A stretch of DNA of 64,000 bases from positions 20,111-84,110 of the forward strand of contig JBDSLC010000193.1 of NCBI GenBank assembly GCA_039916585.1, given 5' to 3'. Shown here piece by piece: positions 8,074-33,000 of this stretch (positions within the stretch are counted from its first letter, which is position 1; each line of letters begins with the position of its first letter). The stretch is from Pyrinomonadaceae bacterium. Its GTDB lineage: Bacteria; Acidobacteriota; Blastocatellia; Pyrinomonadales; Pyrinomonadaceae. The position numbers were made by a program, and so were the translations under genes. The notes under the pieces are model-generated. The model worked only from the letters and a program-made list of their open reading frames with translations. It did no database searches and was not told where the DNA came from.

Positions 8074-8472
8074 ATGAGTTTAGAGGCGCTCGGAATGATC
8101 GAGACCAAAGGATTTGTCGGCGGCGTCGAAGCGGCTGATGCAATGGTGAAAGCTGCCAATGTGCAACTTGTCGGTAAGGAATACATAGGCGCCGGATATA
8201 TGACCATTTTTGTCCGTGGCGATGTCGGAGCGGTAAAGGCCGCAACGGATGCCGGAGCTGCGGCTGCGCGAAGGGTTGGTGAGCTCATCAGTGTGCACGT
8301 CATTCCGCGTCCCCACAACGAGGTCGAGCGAATTCTTCCTAAAGGGGGGAACGTTGGTGTGAGCCCGGACGAGAAGGCCCTTCAAGGCGGGGGACGGGGC
8401 CAACTCGGAGCAGGCGAGGCGGGCAGCGAGACGTCGGGTGACCTGACGGGCAACAAACAAAAAACTCGATAA
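8074..8472 (+). CDS. Bacterial microcompartment shell protein, BMC-H (PduA/EutM-like) with a ~45-aa disordered Gly-rich C-terminal tail
   Basis: [56 protein letters not shown]...VHVIPRPH is the canonical single BMC (Pfam BMC-type) domain, including the edge Lys and the PRPH motif. Confidence 0.93.
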
Positions 8473-8485
8473 GGATCAAGATCTC

Positions 8486-8530
8486 AACGGCGGGAGGCGT
8501 GTTTAAGCGCCTTCACGCCGTTATTCTTTT
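8486..8530 (+). terminator. Intra-operon hairpin plus T-tract between BMC-H and the aldehyde dehydrogenase (putative attenuator/partial terminator)
   Basis: AACGGCG..AGGCG-loop-CGCCT..CGCCGTT forms a nested stem at 8486-8522, followed by ATTCTTTT. Confidence 0.45.
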
Positions 8531-8537
8531 AAGGTAG

Positions 8538-10277
8538 ATGGGAGACAAGGATCTGATAGCGCAACAGGAGGCTCGCGATGCCGTGGAGTCGGCTTACCGC
8601 GCTCAACTCCTGCTCGCGAAGTTTGACCAAACAAAGATCGATGCAATATGCGAGGCGATGGCAAAGGCCGCTCTCGCGGACTCCGCGAGACTTGGCCAGC
8701 TTGCCCACGAAGAAACCGGATTCGGTAAGCCTGAAGATAAACGGGAAAAAAATCGATTCGCTGCGGAGGACGTTTGGAAGCATTTCCGAACTCTGAAGAC
8801 GGTCGGTGTCATTTCGGAGACCGACAGCGTGGTCGAGATAGCTTCGCCGAGGGGCGTGGTTGCCGCGATCATTCCGTCGACGAATCCGACCTCAACGGCT
8901 ATTTTCAAGATCATAATCTCGATTAAATCGCGAAACTCGATAGTTCTCTCGCCGCATCCATCGGCGGCCCAATGCATCGCAGAAACTACGCGGATCATGC
9001 GTGATGCAGGGATCGCGAATGGTTTACCCAGCGACGCGATCCATTGCCTGCAGACTTCGAGCATTGAGGGCACCGAATCCCTAATGAAGCACAGGAACAC
9101 GGCAGTGATCCTGGCGACTGGCGGAATTGGCCTTGTGCGAGCGGCATATTCATCTGGTAAGCCGGCATTCGGTGTCGGCCCTGGCAACGTTCCTTCGTAT
9201 ATCGAATCTTCAGCGAATGTTGAGAAGGCCGTTGCGGATATATTGACAGGAACTTGTTTTGATAACGGTACTATCTGTGCCTCGGAGCAAGCGGTCGTGG
9301 TCGACTCGAAGATCGCTGCAGCCGTCCGCGAACAGTTCAAATCACAGGGCGGTCATTTTCTGAATCCGAGTGAGGCAGACGCCGTGGCAACGGTCCTTTT
9401 GACTCCCCAGCGAACGCTGAATGCTGGAATCGTAGGTCGGTCTGCGAGGCACATAGCAGATCTTGCGGGCATTTCGATTCCTGAAGGGACGCGTTGTCTC
9501 CTTGCTGATTGCGGGGGAGTGGGTCGCGATTATCCATGGTCGATCGAAAAGCTATCGCCGACCCTCGCGTTTTTTATCGTCGACGGTATTGATCAGGCGG
9601 CGGCCCGGTGCGACGAGATCCTGCATTTTGGCGGCATGGGCCACACGGCGGGAATGCATACCCAGGATCGTCAAAAGGCGATCGAGTATGGCAAGGCAAT
9701 GCCGGCGTCTCGCGTTGTGATCAATTCGCCGACGACCCATGGTGCGATCGGCTTTTCTACTGACCTTTCTCCATCGATGACGCTTGGTTGTGGATCATGG
9801 GGCGGCAACGTGACCTCGGACAATGTTTCGCCGATCCACCTTATGGACATTAAGCGGGTTGCGTTCGAGACGAAGCCAATTAATCGCGGTACGGATGTCG
9901 CGGTCTCTCCGGCTAAGGTGGCGGCTCAACACGAACCAGCTCGGAAGACGATAAGTCGTGATCAGGTCGCCGCTTTGGTCGATCAATTTCTTTCGACGAA
10001 GGTCGTCAAGGAGGAAATGCCATTGGCCCCGCAGCCGACTCAACCTTTAGTGGTTCAGCGGCCCGTGGAATCACCGGTGAAGACCATCATTCATGAGCTT
10101 CGTCCTCAATCGCTGACCGAGAATGGATTCAGTAAAGAGCCTGTTGATTTTGTGAGCGAGAACGATGTTCGGGATGCCGTTGCCAAAGGACGGAAGATAT
10201 ACATCACGGCTAAGACAATCTTGACGCCCTCGGCTCGTGACCTGGGAGAAGAGAAGGATGTGTTTGCGAAAGTTTAG
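8538..10277 (+). CDS. CoA-acylating aldehyde dehydrogenase (EutE/PduP family) with a ~110-aa C-terminal extension
   Basis: The N-terminal and core regions are typical of EutE/PduP/AdhE-N ([15 protein letters not shown], catalytic Cys in NGTICASEQ). After residue ~470 come an amphipathic helix, a Pro-rich linker and a small terminal module. Confidence 0.9.
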
Positions 10278-10908
10278 CCTCATCCTTGTCTTATCGCTTT
10301 CTGTTGCAGTGGTTTCCGCGCAGGAGATCATTCCTGAACCCAAGACCCAAGCGCCCGCAGAAGCTATCAGTTACGGATTCGTCATCGACAATTCCGGGTC
10401 GTTTCGCAAGTTGCTGGAGGACGTGATCCAGTTCATCGGCAAGGTTCTCGATGAGCAGAAGCCGGGAGACGAGGCGTTTTTTGTTCGGTTCATTGACGGG
10501 GAAAAGATCAAGCTTGATCAAGAATTGACCTCGGATGCGAGTGAAATACGGGATGCGGCGGACGCGATGTATATCCAGGCCGGGCAGCCGGCAGTGATCG
10601 ACGCAGTTCGCTCGGCGGCCGAGTACCTTGCTGAGAACGGTAAGGTCGAGAACAGGGCGCGACGTTCGATCCTGATCGTGACGGATGGCGATGAGAGGGC
10701 GAGCGAAAGTAAGCCTGAGGTTGCGATCAAGGTGCTGAAGGATGCGGGGATCCGGCTCGTAGCGGTTGCAGTGTCGGATGAAAAGGTTCAGACGAAGGTG
10801 CTTGAACGGCTCACGCGAGAGACGGGCGGGAAGCTGTTTATACTTAAGCAGAAAGGCGAATTGCGATCGATCGCGGGCGAGGTTGCGGCGGCACTTCGTA
10901 ACCCTTAA
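10258..10908 (+). CDS. Secreted von Willebrand factor A (VWA) domain protein with an intact MIDAS motif
   Basis: The ATG at 10258 overlaps the 3' end of the AldDH gene by 20 nt. The signal peptide is [28 protein letters not shown] elements DNSGS and TDGDE are present. Confidence 0.85.
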
Positions 10909-10920
10909 AGTTTATTTACG

Positions 10921-11295
10921 ATGCCGAAGACAGCGGTTAACACAGCAGTTTGTGACATTTGCGGAGCCGAAGTTCGTGATGGTTCCGTATTCTGTTTTAA
11001 CTGCGGCGGATCGCTAACCAATCTCGACGAACCTGAACCGATTCCCCCGCCCGCGGAACCGATCGTAGCGCGTGACGAACCGCCGAGCAACGGAGCGGTA
11101 ACCAAGCATGAGCAGGAACCGCCAAAACGTAAGGCGGATCGCTCGGATCGGCGAAAGGTCAGGGCGTTGAATCGGGAGCCGGCAGAGATCGTGTGGGAAA
11201 CTCGTGACGGCGTTTCCTGGGCGTTCGTGATCGCGTCGGTCATTTTCGTGATCATAGCTTTTGCAATCGTGTTCGCGGCGATCTACGTCCGATAG
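10921..11295 (+). CDS. Zinc-ribbon protein with a C-terminal transmembrane anchor
   Basis: The N-terminus has CDICG...CFNCG (a CxxC-x10-CxxC ribbon). A Pro/Glu/Arg-rich linker is followed by the C-terminal TM segment [24 protein letters not shown]. Confidence 0.7.
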
Positions 11296-11311
11296 GGCGA
11301 CTGAGAAATAT

Positions 11312-11629
11312 ATGCAAGCACTTGGAATGGTCGAATGTATGGGCCTTGTGGCGATGATCGAAGCAGCAGATGCGATGGTCAAGTCTGCCAATGTTCAACT
11401 CGTCGGCTATGAAAAGATCGACGCCGGGCTTGTGACCGCTATTGTCCGAGGCGAGGTCGGGGCTGTGAAAGCTGCGGTCGATGCGGGAGCTGCGGCTGCC
11501 CGACGTATCGGAACCGTGACCGCCGTCCATGTCATTCCGCGCCCGCACGACGAGGTCGATGGCGGCATCCCAGTCCTTCGCACCGGCGAAACTACCCGCA
11601 AAAAGATCTCGGGATCCGTACCTGAGTAA
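11312..11629 (+). CDS. Bacterial microcompartment shell protein, BMC-H (second paralog)
   Basis: The ATG at 11312 gives [59 protein letters not shown]...VHVIPRPH. By eye it is roughly two-thirds identical to the first BMC-H. Confidence 0.92.
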
Positions 11630-11730: not shown

Positions 11731-11754
11731 GAAATGTGGCACGTGCCACATTTC
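11731..11754. repeat. Perfect 24-bp palindrome
   Basis: GAAATGTGGCAC|GTGCCACATTTC is exactly self-complementary. Confidence 0.9.
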
Positions 11755-11835
11755 GAATGCGGAATGCGGAATTGTGAAGGCGGAATGCCCTATTTTCCGG
11801 CATTCTGCGTTCATCAATCACACTTCATCATCCAG

Positions 11836-11855
11836 AATGTGGCACGCGCCACATT
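11836..11855. repeat. Second copy of the palindrome, with a non-palindromic 4-nt centre
   Basis: AATGTGGC-ACGC-GCCACATT shares the arms of the 11731 copy and lies ~100 bp downstream of it. Confidence 0.85.
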
Positions 11856-12190
11856 TGTTGGAGTGGTGTAGAAAGGCGGGAGTTGTTGCGTGAATCGATG
11901 ATCTGGAACGCGCGTTTTGGGTGTCAGCCGATGCCTTTTGGACGATTTGAAACGCGCTTTTGACCCCTCAGTCGCGCGCTTTGGAGGGTAACTTTTTAAC
12001 GACAGGACGCTCCCGGTCGATCGCATCTCGAAGCTCCGACACCGCCGGGCCACCCCGACGCCGATGGATGCCCCGAAGCTCACTCCAAACCTCACTCCAC
12101 ACTCCTCGACCCCACCAGGATGCACCGCCTACAAATCCAGCCGGGTTCCGGCAGCACCGGCCATGCTCCGGGGCGATGTGGTGTGACCGG

Positions 12191-12220
12191 TTGACGCACT
12201 CCGAGCCTTTCGTCTACGAT
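12191..12220 (+). promoter_or_regulatory. Sigma-70-like promoter candidate for the propeller-amidohydrolase gene
   Basis: TTGACG-N18-TACGAT lies ~45 nt upstream of the 12264 start. Confidence 0.3.
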
Positions 12221-12263
12221 GCTCGCGCTACACGCGACATCCAACTTGTTTAGAGAGGTAGAG

Positions 12264-15200
12264 ATGAAGACTCCGATCGTCCGCTGCGCGAATGTTTTAT
12301 TCATTTTCGCATTTATCTCGGCAGCGCCTGCTCAGGCACCGGCCTATAGAACTATCGAGTTCGAAACGACCCAGGTGACAGCGCCGGATATTGCGCTCAC
12401 TCAAGATAGCAAAAACCTTATTTTCACGATGCTCGGAAAGCTCTTTCGCATGCCGGTCAAGGGCGGCGAAGCGGAGCAGCTAACCTTCGGGCCTTATTTT
12501 GATGACAATCCCGCCGTTTCCCCCGACGGGAAAAGTGTGGTTTTCGATTCTGACCGCGACGGTTCTGCTGGGAATATTTTTCTTCTTGATCTGACATCAC
12601 TTGAGATCAAGCAACTCACACACGAAGACTGGGCTGATCGGCCAATCTGGTCAGCGGACGGGAACGCGATCATTTACCTTCATCTTGATCGTAACGAGTG
12701 GAAGCAGCGAGAAGTTATGGCGAGACCGCCAGCGGAGATCCGCAGAGTAACGCTTGACGGATCAAACACTCAAACATTACAGCCGCAAGGTAATATCGCG
12801 TTTGCGTTTTATCTATCAGATGGAAGGTTGGCCTGGGCGGTCGTCGACGGAGTTAACCCGAATTTAAACGCCGTTAAGACTCGGATCGAGTCACTTCGAT
12901 CCGACGGTTCCGTCGAGGTAATACGCAATTCCGATTTCCTGTACGATCAGGTCCAAACAAACTCAAATAGCAGAGGTATATATACTCGGACTCAAAAAGC
13001 TAATTTTGCGCAGGAGCTGACACTGTTTTCGACATCGGGACCAGATCGCCGCGTGGCTCCATTGTCAGGCGAGCCGTCGTCCTTTGCGTTAACACCTGAT
13101 GGGTTTGCCGGGTATGTTGGAAGCCGCGGCCTTATTTGGAAAGTGATGCTTCCGAACGGCCGCATGGACGAGATCCCCTTCAGAGCAAAAGTTAGACTAG
13201 AGATCCACTCCCGTCCACCGACGCGCACATGGACGACCCCAGATCATGTTGCCCGGAAAACACTCAGGACCGTCTCAGAGCCGCGCTTAAGTCCGGACGG
13301 CACTAAACTGCTATTTATTGCATTGCGGAATCTCTGGGAGCAACCCTTGTCAGAAGGGTCGGCGCGTCGTCTGACGAATACATCGAAATTCTCGGAACCG
13401 TTTACGATATCGCCGGATGGTACAGAGGTCGGTTTTGTAGAGTGGCAGAAGGAAGGTGGCCAGATCCAAGTACTAGAACTCGCTTCAGCCAAACAGCGAA
13501 CAATTGCCGGCCCAAATCGATGCGGTTACGAACAATTGTCATGGAGCGCTAGCGGACAACTAGCCGCGGCTACGGCCTGCGAACACGATCTTTTATCGAT
13601 CGACACTCGCGTCCCGTCGATCAAGGTCCTGCTTAAGAAGTCTAGCGACAGGGAACCGTGGCCGTCGATCTCGCCCGATGGCAAAACGCTGTATTTCCAG
13701 GCTACGCCCCCCGGCGCAAAGGCATCGCACTTTAAGTTGGACATAATGTCGGACGGGAAGCCGGAAGCGGTGAGGGCCGCATCGGAGTACGAAACAACGT
13801 ATGAATCCGCGGGACGTTTCGCTGCCGAATCGATTCCGAACTCTGTAGGCGTGAGAGTTTTCCCGATTTCAAGCGAGAAGATAGAAACGTTCGACTTGAG
13901 AGAGCCCGACGGCGAGCAGTTCTCAATCGCACCTGACGGGAAAAGCCTCATCTACGTCGAAGGAAACAAGGTCTGGCGTCAGCCCTTCGATCGCACGCCC
14001 CGCATTGAGATACCGATACGGATATCCATTTCACCTCCCAGGCTTCCTTCATACCTTATCGACCGAGCTCGCGTACTAGATATTCAGAGTGGCATCTTTT
14101 CTACGGAAAGCAGTTTGCTGATAGTGAACGGGCGGATCAGTTCCGTCGGTGCAAATGCGCGACGGTCAGCGCCAAAAGATGCGGTTAAGGTGAACGCGGA
14201 AGGACGCTTTATCATACCTGGGCTGTGGGAAATGCACGGGCACGCTAATGATTGCGCCGGACCGGGCCAATTGATCTTCGGCGTAACCTCAGTAAGAAAT
14301 ATGGGCGGACGCATTGAGATCGAAAATGAGCAGGCGGACCGCAGTGACCTAACAGATGAGCCACTACCAAGATGCTTCTACTCGGGACGCATACTCGAAG
14401 GCGCCCAGGGCCGTCGTGAGGATTGGTATTTTATCCATCCTGCCAACGAAGAAGAGGCTCGGATGTATGTCCGCCGCGCAAAGGACCAAGGCGCTCATTT
14501 CATTAAGCTGTATGAGCGTCTGCCCTGGCCGCTGCAAAGAGCGGCGGCGGACGAAGCCCACCGGATCGGCCTGCCTGTCTCTGCGCATTCCGGAACGGTC
14601 GAAAGAGTGGTAAAGGGAATAAACGCCGGATACGACGGCCTCACACATCATTTTCCGGCGTCGGAGGACCTGCAGCAAATGGTTAAGTATGCGGGAGTTC
14701 ACTGGGATCCTACTCTGGGAGTTCATGGAAGAGCCATTCTCGCGCGAAACGAACCGAACCGGTTCGATATTATTCGACGATATATTCCTAATTTCTCGCC
14801 GTGGAACACTCAGGCCCTGCCGCAGTTAAGCGACGCCGCATTGCAAGGGTTTTGGCTGGAAAGAACGGAGGCCGTTCGCACTGCATTTCGCCGCGGGATT
14901 ACAGTAGTCCCCGGTACAGATTCGCCAGGGCCGTTGAATGGTATTTCATTGCAATGGGAACTTGAGTATTTCGAACAGGCGCGAGTACCTCGGATCGACA
15001 TCATGCGTTCGGCTACCATTAACTCCGCCAGGGTGATGGGTGCAGATGGTCAACTCGGTTCGATCGAAACCGGAAAACTTGCGGATATTTTGATACTAGA
15101 CGCAAACCCGCTAGAGGCGATCCGAAACACGCAAAAGATCTGGCGAGTTTTTAAGGGAGGCCGGATGTTCGATCCGAAGACTCTATTACTCGCAAACTAG
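12264..15200 (+). CDS. Secreted TolB-like beta-propeller(s) fused to a C-terminal metal-dependent amidohydrolase domain
   Basis: The ATG at 12264 follows GAGAGG and gives the signal peptide MKTPIVRCANVLFIFAFISAAPAQA. PD40-type repeats are present (AVSPDGKSVVFDSDRDGSAGNIFLLDL, SPDGTKLLF, SPDGKTLYF). The amidohydrolase motifs are PGLWEMHGHA, VPGTDS and GKLADILILDANPL. Confidence 0.85.
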   Translation: MKTPIVRCANVLFIFAFISAAPAQAPAYRTIEFETTQVTAPDIALTQDSKNLIFTMLGKLFRMPVKGGEAEQLTFGPYFDDNPAVSPDGKSVVFDSDRDGSAGNIFLLDLTSLEIKQLTHEDWADRPIWSADGNAIIYLHLDRNEWKQREVMARPPAEIRRVTLDGSNTQTLQPQGNIAFAFYLSDGRLAWAVVDGVNPNLNAVKTRIESLRSDGSVEVIRNSDFLYDQVQTNSNSRGIYTRTQKANFAQELTLFSTSGPDRRVAPLSGEPSSFALTPDGFAGYVGSRGLIWKVMLPNGRMDEIPFRAKVRLEIHSRPPTRTWTTPDHVARKTLRTVSEPRLSPDGTKLLFIALRNLWEQPLSEGSARRLTNTSKFSEPFTISPDGTEVGFVEWQKEGGQIQVLELASAKQRTIAGPNRCGYEQLSWSASGQLAAATACEHDLLSIDTRVPSIKVLLKKSSDREPWPSISPDGKTLYFQATPPGAKASHFKLDIMSDGKPEAVRAASEYETTYESAGRFAAESIPNSVGVRVFPISSEKIETFDLREPDGEQFSIAPDGKSLIYVEGNKVWRQPFDRTPRIEIPIRISISPPRLPSYLIDRARVLDIQSGIFSTESSLLIVNGRISSVGANARRSAPKDAVKVNAEGRFIIPGLWEMHGHANDCAGPGQLIFGVTSVRNMGGRIEIENEQADRSDLTDEPLPRCFYSGRILEGAQGRREDWYFIHPANEEEARMYVRRAKDQGAHFIKLYERLPWPLQRAAADEAHRIGLPVSAHSGTVERVVKGINAGYDGLTHHFPASEDLQQMVKYAGVHWDPTLGVHGRAILARNEPNRFDIIRRYIPNFSPWNTQALPQLSDAALQGFWLERTEAVRTAFRRGITVVPGTDSPGPLNGISLQWELEYFEQARVPRIDIMRSATINSARVMGADGQLGSIETGKLADILILDANPLEAIRNTQKIWRVFKGGRMFDPKTLLLAN

Positions 15201-15634: not shown

Positions 15635-16678
15635 TTAGTTTAGCTTTGGGGGGGCGCCTTCTTTTTCGGCTGTGCGGCCGGCTCTGGTGATGGCTATTCG
15701 TTTTGAGGCACCGGGGCCGTCAGGGATGCTGACGCGGATGTTGCGGAAGCTGCCGTCTTTTTTGTCGTTTGACGGGATGAATCCGATCGAATACTGGGTG
15801 CGGAGTTCGCTGGCGATCTCTTTTGCGATGCCGCCCATTTCGGAACCTGAGGCGGGGAAGTAAGACTTGCCGCCGGTCGAGGTCGCAAGGCGTTCGAGGA
15901 ATGCTTTTGCTTTACCCTGCGGGCTTTTGCTGATGAAACCCTTATCTTCGCTCAACGCTTTGACGAAGCCGACGACAAAGATCTGCACGTCGGATTCTTT
16001 TAGCATTTCCAAAAGCTGAGTTTCGCTGTAATAGCTGGAGCGGTCTTCGCCATCGGTGACGAGAACGATCGCACGGCGCGTGCGATCGAGATCCTTCTGC
16101 TTGGTCGCAGATTCGTTCAACCGTTCGACCGCGAGGTAGACGGCGTCGATGATCGCTGTCTGGCCGCCCTCGATATACATATTGTCGAGAGCGTCGTTGA
16201 GGTCGGTCTTGTTCTTTGAGAAATCCTGCAGAACCTCGATCTTGTCGGAGCTGACAAATCTTATGATAGCCGTCTCGTCTTCCGCACGGTTGGTGCCTAC
16301 AAGATATTTTCCGGCTTCGATGATCTGTTCGATCTGCTGTCGAAGCGAGCCGGAATTATCTACAAGGAGGGAATAGTTTGTCGGGACCTCCGACTTCGAG
16401 AAAAACCCGATCTCCTGCAGGACGCCGTCTTCGTATATTTTGAAATCGGACTGGGGAAGATTATTGACCGGACGGTTGTTGCGGTCTACAACGCGAACAG
16501 TGATGTTCACCAACTCGGTATCGATCTTGATCTCTTCATCCTCAAGCCGCGGAGTCGCGCCGGGACGCGGCGTCGGCGAAGGGCTTGGCGTCGCAGTTTG
16601 GGCCGATACCGAGATCACACCCACTAATGCGAAGATCGCGAAAACGAACGAGACGGAAACAAAAGCCTTTAATTTCAT
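15635..16678 (-). CDS. Secreted VWA-domain protein (VWFA-related acidobacterial domain type)
   Basis: A signal peptide, the MIDAS motif DNSGS, the motif TDGEDRSS and the C-terminal signature QYSIGFIPSN..KDGSFRNIRV are shared with the 16694 and 61802 paralogs. Confidence 0.85.
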   Translation of the reverse strand: MKLKAFVSVSFVFAIFALVGVISVSAQTATPSPSPTPRPGATPRLEDEEIKIDTELVNITVRVVDRNNRPVNNLPQSDFKIYEDGVLQEIGFFSKSEVPTNYSLLVDNSGSLRQQIEQIIEAGKYLVGTNRAEDETAIIRFVSSDKIEVLQDFSKNKTDLNDALDNMYIEGGQTAIIDAVYLAVERLNESATKQKDLDRTRRAIVLVTDGEDRSSYYSETQLLEMLKESDVQIFVVGFVKALSEDKGFISKSPQGKAKAFLERLATSTGGKSYFPASGSEMGGIAKEIASELRTQYSIGFIPSNDKKDGSFRNIRVSIPDGPGASKRIAITRAGRTAEKEGAPPKLN

Positions 16679-26071: not shown

Positions 26072-29000
26072 CTATCGGGATTCTGGAAAGAGTTTTGAAT
26101 AGATCTGATTATTTGAAGTTCTGAGGAGCGTTCGATAACGTTCGTCCGTCCGGATCGGGTCGAGCTTGGGTTCGGTGCCGAGCCAGATAGCCCACGGGCT
26201 GGACTCCGCCACGCACTCTCCGAGGTAGACGAATGCATCGTCGACTTGGCCCAAAGCTACTGACGCAAGTCCGAGAAAATAAGGCGGGATATATGTAGAC
26301 CTCGCAATATTCTTCCAACGTGCGGTGATGGCGTTTGCTTCGTCGACCTTACCATTTCGAGCCAACGCAAAGCACAAGGTATAAAACGGAAGCGGGGAAT
26401 CGGGTTCGAGATCGGCCGCGCGCCGTGCGTGTTCGAGAGCCGAGGAAAGATCTCCGTATTCCAAGAGCACATTCGCTAGCTGCAGGTGTGACTGCATGAA
26501 ATTTGGGCTTAGCTCAACAAGTTGGCGAGCTTCGCGCTCAGCGGCTGCGAATTCATGGGTCTGATAGATCGTCCACGCCGATAGAACCTTTGCCCTGAGT
26601 GACATCGGATTCAATCGTTCGCTGATCAAGACCTCTTCACGCCCTTCATCGGACCGCCCCGTGCCAACAAGCACGGACGATAGCCACTCGTGAGCAAGCG
26701 AGTAGTTTGGATTCAGGTCGATCGACTTCCGATACAGTTCCTCGGCTTTTTCGAACAGCAGGGAATTCGAATAATACAATCCAAGTGCGGCGTGTGCTTC
26801 TGACAGAAACGGATCGATCTGGATCGCGCGTTCGGCATACTCTCTAACTTTCTCGTGGGTCTCGGCAGGTGGAAACAGGCCATAGATCGTTGCCCAGGTG
26901 TAGTAGTCCGCGATCCCGACATAGGCGAGAGCGTAGTTCGGATCGAGTTCCACTGCCTTCGAAAAAGATTCGATGGATCGGGGAAATGATTCGGGAGTGA
27001 ATTGATTCCAGAAATAGCGTCCCTGCAGGTACGCGTCGTGAGCCTCGGCATTGTTCGTGCCGCGTTTGGTAACCAACGCCTCTTCGGTTCCGGACAGCTT
27101 TGGCAGCAGAGAGCGCGTTACCTGCTCGGCGATCGAGTCCTCGAGTTCAAGAACATCTGAGAATTGTTCTACGAAGCTTGCCGACCATCGGGTCGCATTC
27201 TCCTCGACGTCGAGAAGTTGCGCGGTGACACGTATGCTGTCTCCGACGTGGCGAATGATACCGTCGACGACAAAGTCCACGCCCAACTGCTGGCCGGCCG
27301 AGAACGGATCGGTGTCACCCGCCGCCGTTTGAAGGACGGAGCTAGTTGGCCGCACGAGAAACTTGCGGACATTCGAAAGCCGCATCGTGACAGAGTCCGC
27401 CAGGCCGATGCTGAGATAATTCTCGTCGCCGGTATTGCTGCCTTCAGCGCTGATCACCTTAAAGGGAAGAACTGCTATTGAGCGGATCGGTTCAGACGTG
27501 ATCGGCTCGGGGGTGACGGCGGGCTTCGACGCCAGCGGATTGTGTGTTGCCGAAAGGAGCTCAGCGTATCTCGGATCGCTGCGAATGGCGTCAAGTTTGG
27601 GCTCGGTCGCGAACCACATCATCCACTCATTCTTTTCATCAACGGAACGACGAAACCATTTGAACGCCAGATCGATGTCGCCGGCCGCGACCGCAGTCAT
27701 GCCGATGAAGAACGGCTTCATATGACGCTCGCTCTCGGTTTGCAAGATCTTCTCGAGGATCAACTCTGCTGCCGCTTGATTTCCTTGCGCCGCCCGAGCG
27801 TGTGCAAGCATATACCGCGGCAGTCCGGAGCGCCCCCAACCTTCGGCACTTCGGCGAAGACAAGATATCGCTTCATCGAACTCGCGGGTCGCAGTCAGTA
27901 CGTTGCCCAAGTGGAGGAGAGCCTGGGGAAGCTCACCACTCATTTTTGCAGCCTTTCGGGCCTTGGCGACCGCTTCGGGATATCGACGCGCCTGATAGAG
28001 CGTCCAGGCGGACATCATGATCGCGCGCGGAGCGACGGGATCGAGCTCTTCAGCTTTCAGGATCTCTTTCACGCCCTCGTCGAGTCGCCCCTGGGCGATC
28101 AGGAAATTTGAGTAGTATTCGTGGGCGATCGGGTAGTTTGGATTTAGATCAAGGGAACGCTTGATGAGATATTCGGCATCGGCCCAATTCCAATCATAGA
28201 GGAATACGCAAAAAGCGAGCGCCGCGTAGGCCTCACCCATAGTGTCATTCACCTCCAGGGCCTTTCGGGCTGCTTCGATCGCCTTCGGAAAGCCCTCGGC
28301 AGACGGGATCTCGCCGAAGATCGCCGACCAGATATAAAAGTCCGCTAAGCCGATATATGGGTGGGCGTAGTTTGGGTCTAGCTCAATTGCCTTTTTGAAT
28401 TCTTCGACGGCCTTTAGCAATCCTTCGTCGCTGAATCGGCTCCAAAAATATCGCCCGCGGATATAGGCTTCGTAGGCCTCAGGCTTATTGGTTCCACGAC
28501 GGGCGATCCGGTCGCGTTCCTCGGGCGAGAGCCGGGGGAGGAGCGAGGCGGATACCTGCTCCGCGAGGGAATCTTCAAGCTCGAGTACATCGCCAAGATC
28601 CTTGTCGAACGCTTTCGCCCAGGCGGCTGTGTTGTTCGAGGCGTCAAAGAGTTGGACGGAAACCCGGATTCGGCTGCCGACGATCCGCACGTTTCCGTCG
28701 AGTACGAAATCCGTGCCGAGACTCTTCGCGGCTACGTCCGGTGTGGAGTTGGCGAAAGGAAGAACCGAGGTGGTCGGGCGTACGATGATCCGCGGGATAC
28801 CACTAAGTCTCGATATTAGGGCATCCGCCAGTCCGATGCCGACGAACTCGCTTCCCGTATCGTTAGCCGCAGGATTAGCGAGAACCTTGAACGGAAGGAT
28901 CGCGATCGAGCGCGAATCTGGTTTTCGAACGCCGGTGAAACTGGCCCGGGTAACAAAGTATTCCGCATTAACAGCCTTCCCGTCGAGGAAGTTGGTGATA

Positions 29001-29962
29001 TCATCCGCCAGATCCATTACGGTCCGATATCGATCTGCGGGATCCTTGCGAAGCGCTTTGAGGACGACCTTATCAAGGTCTCCGATCAGTTCGCGGCGGA
29101 GAGTTTCCGGAGTCGCATTCCGGCCTTCGTAGGCGCGGTCGACAGTCATCTCGCTGCCGTTATCAGGAACCAGGTCGCGATCGCTCGTGATAGACCCGCT
29201 CGGGTTGGTAGGCATTTCTTCCCGGATGATCCGCGAGACTTCTTCTGGGAGATTGCGTCGAAGCCGATAGGGGCGATGGCCGGAGAGTAGTTCGTAGAGG
29301 ATCACACCGAGCGAATAAATATCAGACGCCGGTCCGACCGGGTCGCCGCTTATCTGCTCGGGAGAAGCATATTCCGGCGTCATCGCCCGCATCTGCGTAG
29401 CCGTCGGTTCTCCGTCCGTTGCCGAAAGATCGGGATCGAGCATCTTCGCGATGCCGAAATCAAGCAGTTTCGGCTTGCGATCTTCCCTCACCATTATATT
29501 CGACGGCTTAAGGTCCCGATGGATCACCTGAGCCTCGTGGGCGGCGGCGACGGCCCAGCACACCTGTCGAAAGATCAGCAGACGCTCGCGGATGCTCAGT
29601 TTGTTCTTATTGCAGAATTTATAGAGGGGAAGTCCGTCGATAAACTCCATCACGAAGTAAGGCAGCCCATCATCGGTCGAACCGCCACCGAGGAAATAGC
29701 CTACGTTCGGATGATTGAGCGATGCGAGGATCTGACGTTCGCGGCGGAAACGGCGAAGGATCATATCCGTGTCCATTCCCCGCTTTATCAACTTGACCGC
29801 GACAGTTTGGTCAAACTCGCCGTCAACCCGAACCGCGCGATAAACCGCACCCATGCCGCCGCGACCGATCTCTTCCTCGAGTCGATAGGCACCGATACGT
29901 CGGCCGATCATTGAGTTTTCTTCGGCGCCGGGGGCACCGCCGGATTGGTCCATTGCAGGCAA
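26072..29962 (-). CDS. Giant Ser/Thr protein kinase with two tandem [LPF-sensor-like module + TPR array] units; no obvious TM segment
   Basis: Kinase motifs VAVKLIK, HRDLKPSNI, DFGIAK and ASPEQ are present. They are followed twice by SIA(I/V)LPFKV...GLAD(A/S)...VRPT(T/S)SVL...RV(S/T)(V/A)QL(F/L)D modules, each with TPR-like repeats. Confidence 0.9.
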   Translation of the reverse strand: MPAMDQSGGAPGAEENSMIGRRIGAYRLEEEIGRGGMGAVYRAVRVDGEFDQTVAVKLIKRGMDTDMILRRFRRERQILASLNHPNVGYFLGGGSTDDGLPYFVMEFIDGLPLYKFCNKNKLSIRERLLIFRQVCWAVAAAHEAQVIHRDLKPSNIMVREDRKPKLLDFGIAKMLDPDLSATDGEPTATQMRAMTPEYASPEQISGDPVGPASDIYSLGVILYELLSGHRPYRLRRNLPEEVSRIIREEMPTNPSGSITSDRDLVPDNGSEMTVDRAYEGRNATPETLRRELIGDLDKVVLKALRKDPADRYRTVMDLADDITNFLDGKAVNAEYFVTRASFTGVRKPDSRSIAILPFKVLANPAANDTGSEFVGIGLADALISRLSGIPRIIVRPTTSVLPFANSTPDVAAKSLGTDFVLDGNVRIVGSRIRVSVQLFDASNNTAAWAKAFDKDLGDVLELEDSLAEQVSASLLPRLSPEERDRIARRGTNKPEAYEAYIRGRYFWSRFSDEGLLKAVEEFKKAIELDPNYAHPYIGLADFYIWSAIFGEIPSAEGFPKAIEAARKALEVNDTMGEAYAALAFCVFLYDWNWADAEYLIKRSLDLNPNYPIAHEYYSNFLIAQGRLDEGVKEILKAEELDPVAPRAIMMSAWTLYQARRYPEAVAKARKAAKMSGELPQALLHLGNVLTATREFDEAISCLRRSAEGWGRSGLPRYMLAHARAAQGNQAAAELILEKILQTESERHMKPFFIGMTAVAAGDIDLAFKWFRRSVDEKNEWMMWFATEPKLDAIRSDPRYAELLSATHNPLASKPAVTPEPITSEPIRSIAVLPFKVISAEGSNTGDENYLSIGLADSVTMRLSNVRKFLVRPTSSVLQTAAGDTDPFSAGQQLGVDFVVDGIIRHVGDSIRVTAQLLDVEENATRWSASFVEQFSDVLELEDSIAEQVTRSLLPKLSGTEEALVTKRGTNNAEAHDAYLQGRYFWNQFTPESFPRSIESFSKAVELDPNYALAYVGIADYYTWATIYGLFPPAETHEKVREYAERAIQIDPFLSEAHAALGLYYSNSLLFEKAEELYRKSIDLNPNYSLAHEWLSSVLVGTGRSDEGREEVLISERLNPMSLRAKVLSAWTIYQTHEFAAAEREARQLVELSPNFMQSHLQLANVLLEYGDLSSALEHARRAADLEPDSPLPFYTLCFALARNGKVDEANAITARWKNIARSTYIPPYFLGLASVALGQVDDAFVYLGECVAESSPWAIWLGTEPKLDPIRTDERYRTLLRTSNNQIYSKLFPESR

Positions 29963-30025
29963 CAGTTCGAGGAGAAAGAGTCTTGCTCGAACGCTATTCT
30001 GTCACCTGTCGCATTGAGGGTCAAT

Positions 30026-33000
30026 CTACTTTGGCCGCTGAAGCTTTTCGACAAGGCGTCTGAAGCGAGGAGAGGTTTGAAGGTCAGCAAGGCGGGGGTC
30101 GGGCTCGATCATATTGAAGCTATGAGTGCCGGCTTTTTCAGATCGTTCAAGCCAATCGAGAGCGGATTCGCGTTGGCCGAGGTGATCGTATGCCAAGGCG
30201 ATCTCGAAGGCGTATGCGAAATCATTGCCGCGAACAGCTTCTGCATTTATTGCCGTTTCCAAGGTCGCGACAGCGATACGTTTTGAGGCGTCATCCAGCG
30301 GAGCGAGTTGGGCTTCGATAACCTTCCATCCCGGAGCATTCGGATCACCCGATCCTATGCGTTCCGCCTTGAACGAATCCCGGGCAGCCGTCCAGTTGCC
30401 TTGAACGGCGTAGATCCACCGCTTCACCTTGTGAGCCGGGACGAAGTCGGGTTGGAGTGCAAGCGCCCGGTCGGCGGCAGCCAGGCCTTTGTCATATTCG
30501 CCCCCGAAGAAATGAACTATCGCCGCGGCAGACTTGATCGACAGGGAACGCGGGTCGAGCCGCTCGGCGGTTTCTACCTCGCTCAACGCGTCGACCGGTT
30601 TGTTCATCGCTGCCAGAACAAGGGCGAACCAGTGATGTGCCTGTGCATAGGATGGATTCATCTGTATTGCTCGCCGGAATTCCAATTCGGCTCCAGCGCG
30701 ATCGCGATTTGAATAGAAATTAATGTACGCCAGCGACGCGTGAGCCTCTGCCAGATCGGGGTCAAGGGCGAGTGCTTGGTTGGCGTACTTGAGGGCTTTC
30801 GCGTAAGCATCCTTAGGCGGGTCGATGTCGTACAAGTTCAGAAGCGAGTGGGCGTCCGCAAGTCCAACATAGGCCGGAGCGAATGTCGAATCCTCCCTGA
30901 CGGCGTCGGCGAAGAACGTGATCGCTTGGCGAAGGCTCGCGGGACTGCGACCGACCATGGTTGACCGGGCCGTGAGATATTTTTCGTAGGCCGTAAAATT
31001 CGCCGTATACCCCTTTTCGGCCTGCTGTCTTTCGAGCGGTAAAGGATCTATCCCAAGCGTTGTCCAGAGCTTTTCGGCGATCCGAGTTTGAAGGGCGAAA
31101 TAGTCGCCCTCCGGCGACGAAAATCGCTCTTTCCACAGCACGGAGTTCGCGGCGGCATTGACCAGTTCCGCCTCAATGACCGCTCCGCCTTGTGAACGGT
31201 AGAGGTTGCCGCGAAGCACGTAAGCTACATTTAGATCCCTTGCGATCTGCTCCATCGGCTCTTCTCGAACAGATCGCCCAGTGTTGGCCGAGAGAACCGT
31301 TAGTGCTTTCAGATTGCCGAGGCGTTGGGTAATGGAATCGGCGAGCCCTACTCCAAGGTTCTCATTTTCAGGATCGGAAGAGCTGAATGGCATCACGAGG
31401 AGCGAATGATTCTGAAAGCCGATCGGTCGAATTACCTGGCTTTGGCTAGGAACCCTGGGATAGAAATAGAAGGCGAGTCCGGACAGCCCGACGATCGTCA
31501 CGATCGGTGCGGCGAACGCCAATAGCCTCCTATTTCGCTTCGCAATAAACGCGCCCGTAGATCCATCAGAAGTGCTATGACCTTCCTCGATCATAAGCGT
31601 CGTCAGATCGTGGACGGGCCGGTCATCGTCGAGAGCGGTCGGGTCAGTACTCTTGTCGCGGAGAACATCGGTCGAACTCTTGGCAAAGCTGTTGAAGAAC
31701 GGCCGATAGCCGGTTTGCTCCAGAATGTGCTCGAACCGGTCGTCGCTTCGCAGGGGATCGAGGACGGGATCGACCCCCATCCAATTCAGCCAAGCTTCCT
31801 TGATCTCGGCGGCCTGCTGGAGTTTGAGGATCGCATTCTCGTGATCGCCGAGGTAGCAGTTGACGAGAGCGATCTGGTACGGCGAGACGTAGCGATCTTT
31901 CGAAAGTTCTAGAATGTCCGCAAGTTTTCGTTTTGCGACCTCGATCTGGCCGTCGGCTGCATAGCATTCTGCCTCGCCGAGGCGGGAGAACAGACTGTGG
32001 CCCATCAACTCGTTGCCGACCTTTACCTGTTCGATCGCGTCTCTCGTATTGCCGATCTTGCGATTTACCTTGCTGAGCCCAAGGTGCCCAAAACTATAGT
32101 CCGGGAATTTCTGGATCACTCCCTCATACTGCTCCGCGGCTTCTGTATAGCGGCCGCTGTAGTACAAGCCCCAGCCGATATTGTGGTGATTGAAGGGCGT
32201 AAGCGGGTCAAGTTCGACCCCGCGACGGGCGAATTCGAGCCCCTCGGAGAATCGGCCTTCGGTAAAGAGGACGATCGAATACCACACGAACGCGACCCCA
32301 TTGCCGGGATTCAATTCGATGGAACGCTTGAGGTGTTTTTCAGCCGATGCCCAGTCATAGCTTCCAGCGTGTAACGCAAATCCGAGAGTTGCGTGTGCTT
32401 CAGACAACTCCGGATCAAGGTCAGCCGCTTTCTTGGCAGCCTCGATGGCGGGAAGGAAACATTCCTGCGGGGGAAGGACGCCAATGATCCCGAGCCACGA
32501 ATAATAATCGGCGAGTCCGCAATATGCGAGGGCGTAATCGGGATCGGCAGCTATCGCTGAATGGAATGCGACAAATGCCTTTGCCAAGCCTTCCTCAGTG
32601 GAGCTATTGAAATAGTAGCGTCCACGCAGATACTGCTCGAAAGCTTCGGGGACGTCGGTGCCGCGTTTTGCGAAGTCAGCGAGTTCGCTTCCAGTCAACT
32701 GAGGAAGCAGAGCCTCGATGACCTTGCTGGATATCGTGTCTTCAAGCGTGAGTACGTCCGCTAGATTTTCGTCGATCGACGTCGCCCAGACCGCCGCGTT
32801 CTCCTTTACGTTGAGTAGCTGGATCGTAACGCGAAGACGGTCGTTCGCCTTCTTGATGCTGCCGTCAATGATGAAGTCTACATTTAACGCCTGACCCGCC
32901 TTGATCGGATCGGCGATCGTTGAGCTGAACGCAAGGATCGAACTCGTAGGACGGACCAAAAACCTTCGTATCTTACTGAGACGCGTGATCAAGGCATCTG

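Follow-up and report, generated by a model that had tools for sequence, protein, structure and literature searches.

The window considered here, meaning the whole 64-kb stretch of DNA that was analyzed, derives from a Pyrinomonadaceae MAG (Acidobacteriota subdivision 4), and the window proteins are available from NCBI as MEO5860061-64. Two genes for BMC-H shell proteins (H1 and H2) bracket genes for a CoA-acylating aldehyde dehydrogenase (AldDH), a small exported VWA protein, and a membrane-anchored zinc-ribbon (Zn-ribbon) protein. These five genes and two features of the AldDH C-terminus are as follows.

8074..8472, + strand: BMC-H shell protein H1, 132 aa; BMC domain (PF00936, 1.6e-29) plus a conserved Gly-rich C-terminal tail of ~45 aa.
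8538..10277, + strand: CoA-acylating AldDH, 579 aa; PF00171 (Aldedh), core at ~aa 1-450, catalytic Cys247 in GTICASEQ.
9954..10007, + strand: putative encapsulation peptide (EP) of AldDH, aa 473-490.
10140..10274, + strand: C-terminal tail domain of AldDH, ~45 aa, aa 535-579.
10258..10908 (ORF from 10237), + strand: small exported VWA protein, 216 aa; PF00092 at 4.4e-14 to 4.8e-14, signal peptide at ~aa 1-21 with the cleavage site between VSA and QE.
10921..11295, + strand: Zn-ribbon protein with a C-terminal TM anchor, 124 aa; C11/C14/C25/C28, TM helix at ~aa 101-122, Zn_ribbon_3 at 5.9e-6.
11312..11629, + strand: BMC-H shell protein H2, 105 aa; PF00936 at 1.6e-28, with a conserved C-terminal tail.

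All five ORFs are present on the same strand, as a preliminary description of this DNA had proposed, and their intergenic spacings (-20, 12, 16, and 65 nt) are operon-like. The most likely start of the VWA gene is the ATG at 10258, which gives the 216-aa product. The flanking genes were also those named in that description, namely guaB, a rodZ-like HTH gene, and a gene for a PD40-amidohydrolase that had been called a periplasmic amidohydrolase. A scan for sigma-70 promoters and terminators revealed no convincing + strand promoter upstream of H1, and an Rfam scan returned nothing credible as a riboswitch or leader 5' of the five genes.

H1 and H2 each have a single PF00936 domain and carry the motifs expected for hexamer tiling, as the preliminary description had stated. 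The edge Lys lies in D-A-M-V-K (within EAADAMVK) and the (I/V)PRPH motif occurs as VIPRPH in both proteins, and these segments are conserved in orthologues. The two proteins are 69% identical to each other. When compared with relatives whose loci have the same organization as that in the window, H1 is 83-88% identical (pN 0.09-0.13, pS saturated) and H2 is 89-94% identical (pN 0.03-0.07). Purifying selection on the H1, H2, and AldDH genes is strong, with pN values of 0.03-0.16 compared to 0.05-0.08 for guaB and with pS saturated. A separate scan of viral contigs for BMC-H found only a Salmonella pdu operon that adjoins a prophage.

The AldDH belongs to a family with more than 120 database clusters of full-length relatives at 74% identity or greater, and its catalytic Cys is intact. 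The enzyme had been described as CoA-acylating and of the EutE/PduP type. The first part of this assignment holds, but the second does not. Profile scores were 565 bits for TIGR02518 (below the equivalog cut-off of 620 bits) and 541 bits for the AdhE N-terminal domain, compared to 242 bits for PRK15398 (PduP/EutE). Likewise, the closest PDB entry is the acetylating acetaldehyde dehydrogenase 5J78 (477 bits), whereas PduP structures score ~170 bits. PduP and EutE also carry their EP at the N-terminus, whereas the targeting extension of the window AldDH is C-terminal. By these comparisons, the protein is assigned to the same functional class as PduP/EutE but to a different subfamily. Its core aligns end to end with stand-alone acetylating acetaldehyde dehydrogenases and AdhE N-terminal domains (5J78, 3K9D, and 6TQH), including the conserved catalytic Cys, although those enzymes lack the ~125-aa extension of EP, linker, and docking segment that is found in the window AldDH.

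This extension places the putative EP after the core, followed by a Pro-rich linker and a 45-aa domain. The EP segment has the consensus (D/E)(Q/E)(I/V)AA(I/L)VD(Q/R)FL, which is conserved family-wide between hypervariable linkers. Because the helical hydrophobic moment of the segment is only moderate, we infer the EP role of aa 473-490 from sequence conservation and position. The tail domain has no match in Pfam. An exhaustive search with the tail recovered 430 representatives at E<=1e-3, and every match inspected was a C-terminal end or fragment of the same AldDH family, with no other cargo protein among them.

A distant resemblance was nonetheless found to the N-terminal module of EutQ and EutT from the ethanolamine-utilization BMC. 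The tail scored 18.8 bits against the N-terminus of E. coli EutT and 16.0 bits against that of EutQ, compared to 8.6 bits for the best of 3000 shuffled decoys. Residues 535-579 align to ~4-41 of EutQ and ~3-42 of EutT, with the common motif (I/V)(T/S)E.D(V/I)R.A...G..I......I(I/L)TP.AR(D/E)L. The similarity is weak (16-19 bits), and the module is N-terminal in EutQ and EutT but C-terminal in AldDH. EutQ residues 9-41 (the H1/H2 region of EutQ, distinct from the shell proteins named here) bind the shell (PMC12487888). By analogy, the AldDH tail is a candidate shell-docking module, which gives this "domain of unknown function" a testable function.

The remainder of the window offers no other compartment components. 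Domain searches of ORFs from the full 64 kb detected no BMC-P, BMC-T, PTAC, aldolase, or Fe-ADH, in agreement with the preliminary description, which had noted the absence of a pentamer, BMC-T, phosphotransacylase, alcohol dehydrogenase, and signature enzyme. Among the 139 small ORFs, the only matches to shell-protein families are the two BMC-H genes, with no matches to EutN/CcmL, and the large ORFs encode housekeeping or unrelated proteins. Thus, nowhere in the window do shell genes accompany the canonical metabolosome core of PduL/Pta, Fe-ADH, and an aldehyde-generating enzyme.

This arrangement corresponds closely to part of a known BMC type. The ACI type, as catalogued by Sutter et al. 2021 (PMC8217296), is exclusive to Acidobacteria, mainly subdivisions 4 and 6, and is grouped there with loci that lack a complete core or an obvious signature enzyme. 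Its AldDh is consistently encoded on a satellite locus, where it is sometimes accompanied by BMC-H or by a fourth, "blue" BMC-P, and the enzyme has an EP near its C-terminus followed by a ~50-aa domain (PMC8217296). The ACI main locus encodes a class II aldolase (PF00596, with a C-terminal EP), BMC-H, a BMC-P triplet, a 2-hydroxyacid dehydrogenase (PF00389/PF02826), and unknown proteins that include a small EP/Cys-rich protein (PMC8217296). The text of the catalogue makes no mention of VWA, Zn-ribbon/TM, or DUF711 proteins (PMC8217296).

The window shares the distinguishing features of the ACI satellites in Supplementary Data 2 of the catalogue (PMC8217296), including the subdivision 4 host, an AldDh apart from the aldolase and BMC-P genes, the C-terminal EP and small domain, and adjoining BMC-H genes with the K and PRPH motifs. 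We recovered 80 related loci, each from a GTDB species represented by Pyrinomonadaceae, Blastocatellia, or Acidobacteriota MAGs, and all 80 hosts are acidobacterial. The layout of the AldDH tail is conserved across the 430 representatives. Within 10 kb on either side of AldDH, the 80 loci contain no aldolase and no BMC-P other than an accessory one.

The catalogue also describes a similar two-locus design for MIC3 BMCs of Planctomycetes, in which AldDh, BMC-H, and blue BMC-P genes are separate from a locus with a BMC-P triplet and class II aldolase. In phylogeny, the ACI AldDh resembles only that of MIC3, and the two types share an ACT HMM named "acimic3" (PMC8217296). However, MIC3 occurs in a different phylum, its AldDh lacks an EP and ends in a 4-Cys domain of ~40 aa, and BMC-T and amidohydrolase are present.

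Separate main loci were identified in four Pyrinomonadaceae MAGs (DASVUF, DASVPV, DASVSK, and JBJMGR). They encode a Rex-like protein, the aldolase, unknown ORFs, BMC-H, three BMC-P proteins, and a Cys-rich EP protein, and no AldDH lies within 10 kb of any of them. None of the Pyrinomonadaceae main loci that we examined, all of them from relatives, showed the 2-hydroxyacid dehydrogenase. The same block recurs in ~20 soil contigs and in several Mb-scale contigs. H1 is 76-80% identical to the main-locus BMC-H proteins, which are the closest paralogues of both H1 and H2. A BMC-H protein search for main-locus paralogues returned at least 120 orthologue clusters, all of which are at least 89% identical to H2. 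Cluster-member tables and look-ups of main-locus BMC-H and BMC-P variants revealed no assembly that carries both an AldDH locus and a main locus, with near misses in the pairs DASVPV and DASVPO, and JBJMGR and JBJMGS. We infer that a main locus resides in the window's own genome. No homologues of ACI main-locus proteins other than BMC-H occur in the window.

Forty-five of the 80 related loci had sufficient flanking sequence to be counted as complete, and all 45, which come from other Blastocatellia species, have the order H-AldDH-BMC-P-ACT-Zn-ribbon-DUF711-H. The five-gene form in the window is found at five independent loci in its own clade, where all five ORFs are intact across ~20% AldDH divergence, and one AldDH of this kind was located in assembly JBEBGW. 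The window AldDH is 76-80% identical to its five-gene relatives compared to 62-67% for the seven-gene loci. From these gene orders, the seven-gene form is evidently ancestral in Blastocatellia, and in the window's clade BMC-P, ACT, and DUF711 were evidently lost and the exported VWA gene was added. The ACT protein carries an EP-like extension, and therefore the ACT/DUF711 pair may be cargo. The "atypical composition" reported for this locus thus stands with regard to its gene content and to the co-conservation of the five genes, which had been suggested as a check, but the composition is a derived reduction of the seven-gene locus.

The Zn-ribbon gene is common to both forms. Although the Pfam score for the zinc ribbon falls just under the gathering cut-offs, paired CxxC motifs and a C-terminal TM helix are present in 69 of 69 detected homologues. 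The gene keeps its relative position in all loci of the window type and in 43 of the 45 complete canonical ones, even though the proteins are only 31-50% identical and have a low-complexity, fast-evolving linker. Judging from this conservation, the Zn-ribbon gene is evidently an ancestral member of the AldDH locus.

The VWA gene has a different history. It is absent from the canonical loci (0 of 80), evolves rapidly (39-50% identity, pN 0.34-0.43), and shares 34% identity (4e-32) with the VWA domain of a large VWFA gene downstream (15635-16678, - strand). The small gene therefore appears to be a truncated paralogue that was derived from nearby VWFA genes and gained by the window's clade. The protein had been considered MIDAS-competent, but its motif is incomplete. 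The DxSxS element (DNSGS) and the final Asp (TDGD) are kept, but Pro stands in place of the Thr of "GGQT" (giving "AGQP"). This Thr is Ala in one relative (L006) and is retained in two others (L002 and L004) and in the large VWFA paralogues. All four orthologues begin with an n-h-c signal and an AxA cleavage site followed by Q, and we rejected a role for VWA as compartment cargo because this Sec-type signal peptide is found in every orthologue. Since it is secreted, the protein is probably not a component of the microcompartment.

We consider it likely that the locus is a reduced version, specific to this lineage, of the AldDH satellite that belongs to an ACI-type metabolosome, rather than a new minimal organelle. 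According to this model, H1 and H2 would serve as hexameric tiles in a shell that they build together with the BMC-H and the three BMC-P vertex proteins of a distant main locus. The EP-tagged class II aldolase of that locus would release an aldehyde inside the shell, and the 579-aa AldDH would convert this aldehyde to an acyl-CoA. The substrate of this presumed pathway would be a sugar-phosphate-derived aldehyde, as the catalogue proposes. AldDH would be recruited by its C-terminal extension, in which the amphipathic EP joins the cargo core and, beyond the flexible Pro-rich linker, the ~45-aa module resembling the EutQ/EutT N-terminus docks on the shell. Because the five-gene clade lacks a satellite BMC-P, its vertices would depend entirely on the proposed main locus.

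The preliminary description had left two readings in place. One, that the shell and AldDH genes form a module and that the enzyme generating the substrate is encoded elsewhere, is supported by the ACI-type tail and by the separate aldolase-bearing main loci of the four Pyrinomonadaceae MAGs. The other, an uncharacterized organelle type or use of BMC proteins, is not supported, given that the AldDH tail and the taxon match the catalogued ACI type. That description had proposed to give up its claim of novelty if the genome carried a complete locus of a known BMC type with these genes as its satellite, and the comparison with the catalogue largely leads to this outcome.

A specific version of the second reading is that two BMC-H proteins and AldDH form a self-sufficient, pentamer-free compartment or scaffold (sheets, tubes, or open shells) with no main locus. 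The window indeed lacks BMC-P and a signature enzyme, the satellite BMC-P of relatives has been lost specifically in this clade, and the look-ups found no assembly with both a five-gene locus and a main locus. Moreover, the shell and AldDH genes are functional because they are under strong constraint. However, AldDH keeps the full ACI targeting tail, a two-locus design is evident in every related lineage examined, H1 and H2 are close paralogues of main-locus BMC-H, and what was lost is the accessory "fourth" BMC-P, not a member of the main-locus triplet. We therefore regard this alternative as quite improbable. Far less credible still is the view that the locus is a defunct, decaying leftover of an ACI satellite that was once complete. 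The clade does lack three ancestral genes out of seven, and the inserted VWA has a degraded MIDAS motif, but H1, H2, and AldDH show the same degree of constraint as guaB, the catalytic Cys and shell interface motifs are preserved, and the ORFs are intact at all five independent loci despite ~20% AldDH divergence. We rejected decay on account of the selection and the intact ORFs.

As an ACI satellite, the locus falls inside a known type and does not qualify as a new organelle. Among the microcompartments of soil bacteria, the ACI type ranks with the most abundant. For the Blastocatellia, our analysis sets out the canonical AldDH locus of seven genes, including its conserved membrane-anchored Zn-ribbon protein, together with an abundant clade that runs on a five-gene version without the accessory vertex protein. 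These findings provide leads for reconstituting ACI compartments or assigning their substrate, and they refine known biology without adding a new principle.

The Zn-ribbon/TM protein, along with VWA in the window's clade, could also be a functional partner of the organelle, for example as a membrane tether, a positioning factor, or a link to an envelope process, but we consider this unlikely. Both genes are tightly packed between AldDH and H2 and show some purifying selection (pN below pS), and the Zn-ribbon position is kept in both locus types despite low sequence identity. However, VWA is exported, is clade-specific, originates from neighboring VWFA genes, and has lost the MIDAS Thr in the window. 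Furthermore, conserved gene order in a single bacterial class says little about function by itself, and we found no precedent or interaction in the literature. It is similarly doubtful, though conceivable, that the tail-anchored Zn-ribbon protein is a dedicated factor that tethers or positions the cytoplasmic microcompartment at the inner membrane, and that the window's clade was rewired, through loss of the vertex protein and ACT/DUF711 and gain of the exported VWA, in a way that links the organelle with a process in the envelope. If so, the result would be a membrane-associated metabolosome, a kind that is so far undescribed.

The preliminary description reported five tightly placed same-strand genes, and all five were found by ORF listing and Pfam searches on the plus strand between 8074 and 11629, as follows:

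8074-8472, plus strand: H1, the first BMC-H gene of the locus (Pfam BMC, 1.6e-29)
8538-10277, plus strand: AldDH, a 579-aa CoA-acylating aldehyde dehydrogenase (Pfam Aldedh)
10237/10258-10908, plus strand: VWA protein (Pfam VWA, 4.8e-14)
10921-11295, plus strand: zinc-ribbon/TM protein (zinc-ribbon, 5.9e-6, slightly below the gathering score)
11312-11629, plus strand: H2, the second BMC-H gene of the locus (Pfam BMC, 1.6e-28)

H1 and H2 are 69% identical, and the edge-Lys (DAMVK) and IPRPH motifs claimed for the two BMC-H proteins were seen in both. The inventory of genes present in and missing from the window was also correct, because neither the small nor the large ORFs include further BMC genes. 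Among 139 small ORFs screened, the only shell-family matches are H1 and H2, and none matches EutN/CcmL. The large ORFs encode RelA, RidA, SurA, ABC-F, GuaB, a RodZ-like protein, a PD40-amidohydrolase, two large VWFA proteins, T2SS components, two Ser/Thr kinase-TPR giants, FtsY, RibD, KsgA, RNase J, RecJ, Lpt proteins, RpoN, HPF, HprK, RapZ, PTS parts, Ddl, and others.

The subfamily assignment of AldDH required correction. Rather than a PduP/EutE-type enzyme, AldDH is of the AdhE-N/stand-alone acetylating acetaldehyde dehydrogenase kind, with 565 bits to TIGR02518 and 477 bits to PDB 5J78 versus 242 bits to PRK15398 and about 170 bits to PduP structures. Its catalytic Cys247 is intact. Beyond the core, the protein continues with a conserved amphipathic segment, a hypervariable Pro/Ala-rich linker, and a conserved 45-aa domain for which Pfam has no model. 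An exhaustive HMMER search of 1.84 billion representatives with this tail gave 430 matches, and all those inspected come from the C-terminal end of AldDHs of this family.

The preliminary description had called for comparison with published locus catalogues and for an assessment of neighborhood conservation. The first led to ACI, a microcompartment type defined with 125 loci that is exclusive to Acidobacteria, mainly subdivisions 4 and 6 (PMC8217296). In this type, AldDH has an encapsulation peptide near its C-terminus with a domain of ~50 aa after it, resides on a satellite locus apart from a main locus that encodes a class II aldolase, a BMC-H, and a BMC-P triplet, and is occasionally accompanied by a fourth (blue-clade) BMC-P or by BMC-H genes; MIC3 has the same two-locus split, and the catalogue's HMM table names an ACT model for ACI and MIC3 (PMC8217296). 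The window AldDH fits this type and is most probably an ACI AldDH, and the window proteins MEO5860061-64 are annotated at NCBI as from a Pyrinomonadaceae MAG (subdivision 4). Our literature search found no experimental paper on ACI.

To survey related loci, an alignment of diverse AldDH tails was used as a probe against one genome per GTDB species. The 80 loci recovered belong to Pyrinomonadaceae, Blastocatellaceae, Chloracidobacterium, and unclassified Acidobacteriota MAGs, and three of the sequences are complete chromosomes (OY970389.1, OY969701.1, and OY969111.1). All of the 45 loci whose flanks are sufficiently long have the seven-gene order H1-AldDH-BMC-P-ACT-zinc-ribbon/TM-DUF711-H2, with the zinc-ribbon/TM gene present in 43 of them and a small VWA gene between AldDH and the zinc-ribbon gene in none. 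The BMC-P protein is about 109 aa (PF03319, 2.8e-28), DUF711 is matched at 9e-176, and a pair of large VWFA genes is often found next, in the opposite orientation. The five-gene block, on the other hand, is conserved in five independent loci: the window, L002/L003, L004/L005, L006, and L370. These share upstream synteny (relA...guaB-rodZ) and differ in their downstream flanks. The window AldDH is 76-80% identical to those of L002/L003, L004/L005, and L006 versus 62-67% for AldDHs of seven-gene loci, and more than 120 database clusters contain an AldDH at least 74% identical to it. The five-gene form is thus derived in one abundant clade, which has lost BMC-P, ACT, and DUF711 and gained the small VWA gene. 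The window locus is a new, reduced variant of an already known kind of locus.

The accessory (“blue”) BMC-P of the seven-gene locus, as in L208 (10156-10485), has a conserved C-terminal amphipathic extension of ~25 aa (...SDEMREAARRL...NGR) that is missing from EutN, PduN, and HO BMC-P. The ACT protein carries a ~65-aa amphipathic, EP-like (encapsulation peptide-like) N-terminal extension and adjoins DUF711/UPF0210. This pair is located at 10515-10979 and 11432-12793 in L208, and the same genes occur in L167-L246. The conserved ACT/DUF711 pair may be unrecognized microcompartment cargo; the catalogue text makes no mention of DUF711 (PMC8217296). The C-terminal tails of H1 (window 8314-8472, ...GNKxKTR) and H2 (11560-11629) past the BMC domain are conserved and are kept in both the five-gene and seven-gene clades, and the H1 tail has no Pfam match.

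Candidates for the main locus were recovered by scanning metagenomes with an alignment of BMC-P. About 20 soil contigs carry an aldolase, a BMC-H, and one to three BMC-P genes without AldDH. Their aldolases are 260-290 aa long and end in an amphipathic tail (e.g., VTLTRRELTALITEAARLV). H1 and H2 have their closest paralogue in this BMC-H protein of about 95-98 aa (76-80% and 67-76% identity), and a sequence segment is common to all of them. Four MAGs that NCBI annotates as Pyrinomonadaceae (DASVUF010000128.1, DASVPV010000871.1, DASVSK010000860.1, and JBJMGR010000110.1) contain the full main locus, in the order Rex-like regulator, ORF, aldolase, sometimes two ORFs, BMC-H, three EutN/CcmL genes, and a last ORF with an amphipathic helix at the N-terminus and clustered Cys residues at the C-terminus. 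The block also occurs in the Blastocatellia MAG QHVH01 and in Mb-scale contigs, typically with ruvAB adjacent. Direct placement beside ruvA-ruvB was observed (L327 4827-11831; L329-L334) for a Pyrinomonadaceae MAG as well as several Mb-scale contigs, and this gene pair is a possible synteny anchor for finding ACI main loci. In some main loci of Blastocatellia (L275 4243-5809; L346, QHVH01000033.1), a single 92-aa BMC-P follows aldolase-BMC-H, with nadE directly next. The vertex-gene complement therefore varies within the class, given the triplet in Pyrinomonadaceae. No AldDH lies within 10 kb of the main loci found, and BMC-H is the only main-locus protein with homologues in the window. None of the assemblies looked up shows both loci; that the two co-occur in one genome is suggested by the 125 loci consolidated in the catalogue, together with the evidence from the family.

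Of the two readings originally offered, a shell-plus-AldDH module whose substrate-generating enzyme lies elsewhere is supported by the ACI-type AldDH tail and the separate main loci in the family. An uncharacterized organelle type is not, since the locus matches the catalogued ACI AldDH satellite. In the best-supported model, H1 and H2 would be extra hexamers of the ACI shell, and the main locus would supply the vertices as well as the aldolase that generates the aldehyde. The aldolase would free an aldehyde within the shell, and AldDH, recruited via its C-terminal extension, would oxidize it to acyl-CoA. A decaying remnant is a further reading. When the window was compared with its relatives of the five-gene clade, synonymous sites proved to be saturated (pS 0.67-0.87), and non-synonymous sites diverge by 0.09-0.13 in H1, 0.03-0.07 in H2, and 0.14-0.16 in AldDH, similar to neighboring guaB (0.05-0.08). 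This constraint, together with the intact Cys247, speaks against decay of the shell-plus-AldDH module. Constraint is much weaker on VWA (0.34-0.43) and the zinc-ribbon gene (0.31-0.48), but these values are still below pS.

For the VWA gene, the most likely start is ATG 10258, giving a 20-nt overlap with the AldDH stop. A signal with cleavage at ...|QE is predicted at its N-terminus, and because an equivalent n-h-c signal and AxA|Q site are common to all orthologues, the protein is exported, which rules out a place inside the cytoplasmic compartment. VWA had been called MIDAS-competent; however, its MIDAS threonine is replaced by proline. It is 34% identical (4e-32) to the VWFA gene at 15635-16678 and is a truncated paralogue of this adjacent acidobacterial family. 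The preferred interpretation is a passenger specific to this clade that has been fixed in the operon. The zinc-ribbon protein has an N-terminal CxxC-x10-CxxC motif and one TM helix at its extreme C-terminus. Its position is conserved across the class, and the gene is ancestral to the locus. The most interesting reading of its putative role is that it may be a membrane tether.

The AldDH tail (window 10140-10274, aa 535-579) resembles ~40 N-terminal residues of EutQ/EutT (L355 497-700, 1195-1380). Its profile scores 18.8 bits with the E. coli EutT N-terminus (MKDFITEAWLRANHTLSEGAEIHLPADSRLTPSARELLE) and 16.0 bits with that of EutQ (KKLITANDIREAHARGEQAMSVVLRASIITPEAREVAD), versus a best of 8.6 bits among 3000 shuffled decoys. 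The aligned region of EutQ (residues 9-41) was found experimentally in 2025 to bind the shell, whereas cargo EPs are bound by a second pair of helices (PMC12487888). By this weak similarity, ACI AldDH would combine an EP with a module for shell docking in the same protein. The locus is of interest for the function of ACI compartments, for the conserved membrane-anchored zinc-ribbon gene, and for the putative docking domain. A further resemblance of the tail is to the C-terminal end of a 251-aa protein encoded on an unrelated BMC contig (L278 4588-5343).

An imperfect 125-nt hairpin (window 11732-11856) lies ~100 nt 3' of the H2 stop. A palindromic 21-mer, AATGTGGCACG(T/C)GCCACATTT, bounds the hairpin on both sides and occurs nowhere else in the window, where 0 copies are expected by chance. 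This hairpin may act as a terminator or represent a small repeat element; a sub-threshold Rfam miRNA match there is spurious and was produced by the hairpin itself. The PD40/amidohydrolase gene (12219-15200) downstream of the locus is not at that position in the syntenic L002, L004, and L006 and is therefore a local insertion outside the locus. Two large VWFA genes and T2SS genes come more or less directly after the locus in L004 and L006, and a cadherin-like gene is found downstream in L002. The two giant genes at 26072-34354 (minus strand), which lie next to each other, encode proteins of 1296 and 1442 aa, each with a Ser/Thr protein kinase domain at the N-terminus and long TPR arrays after it.
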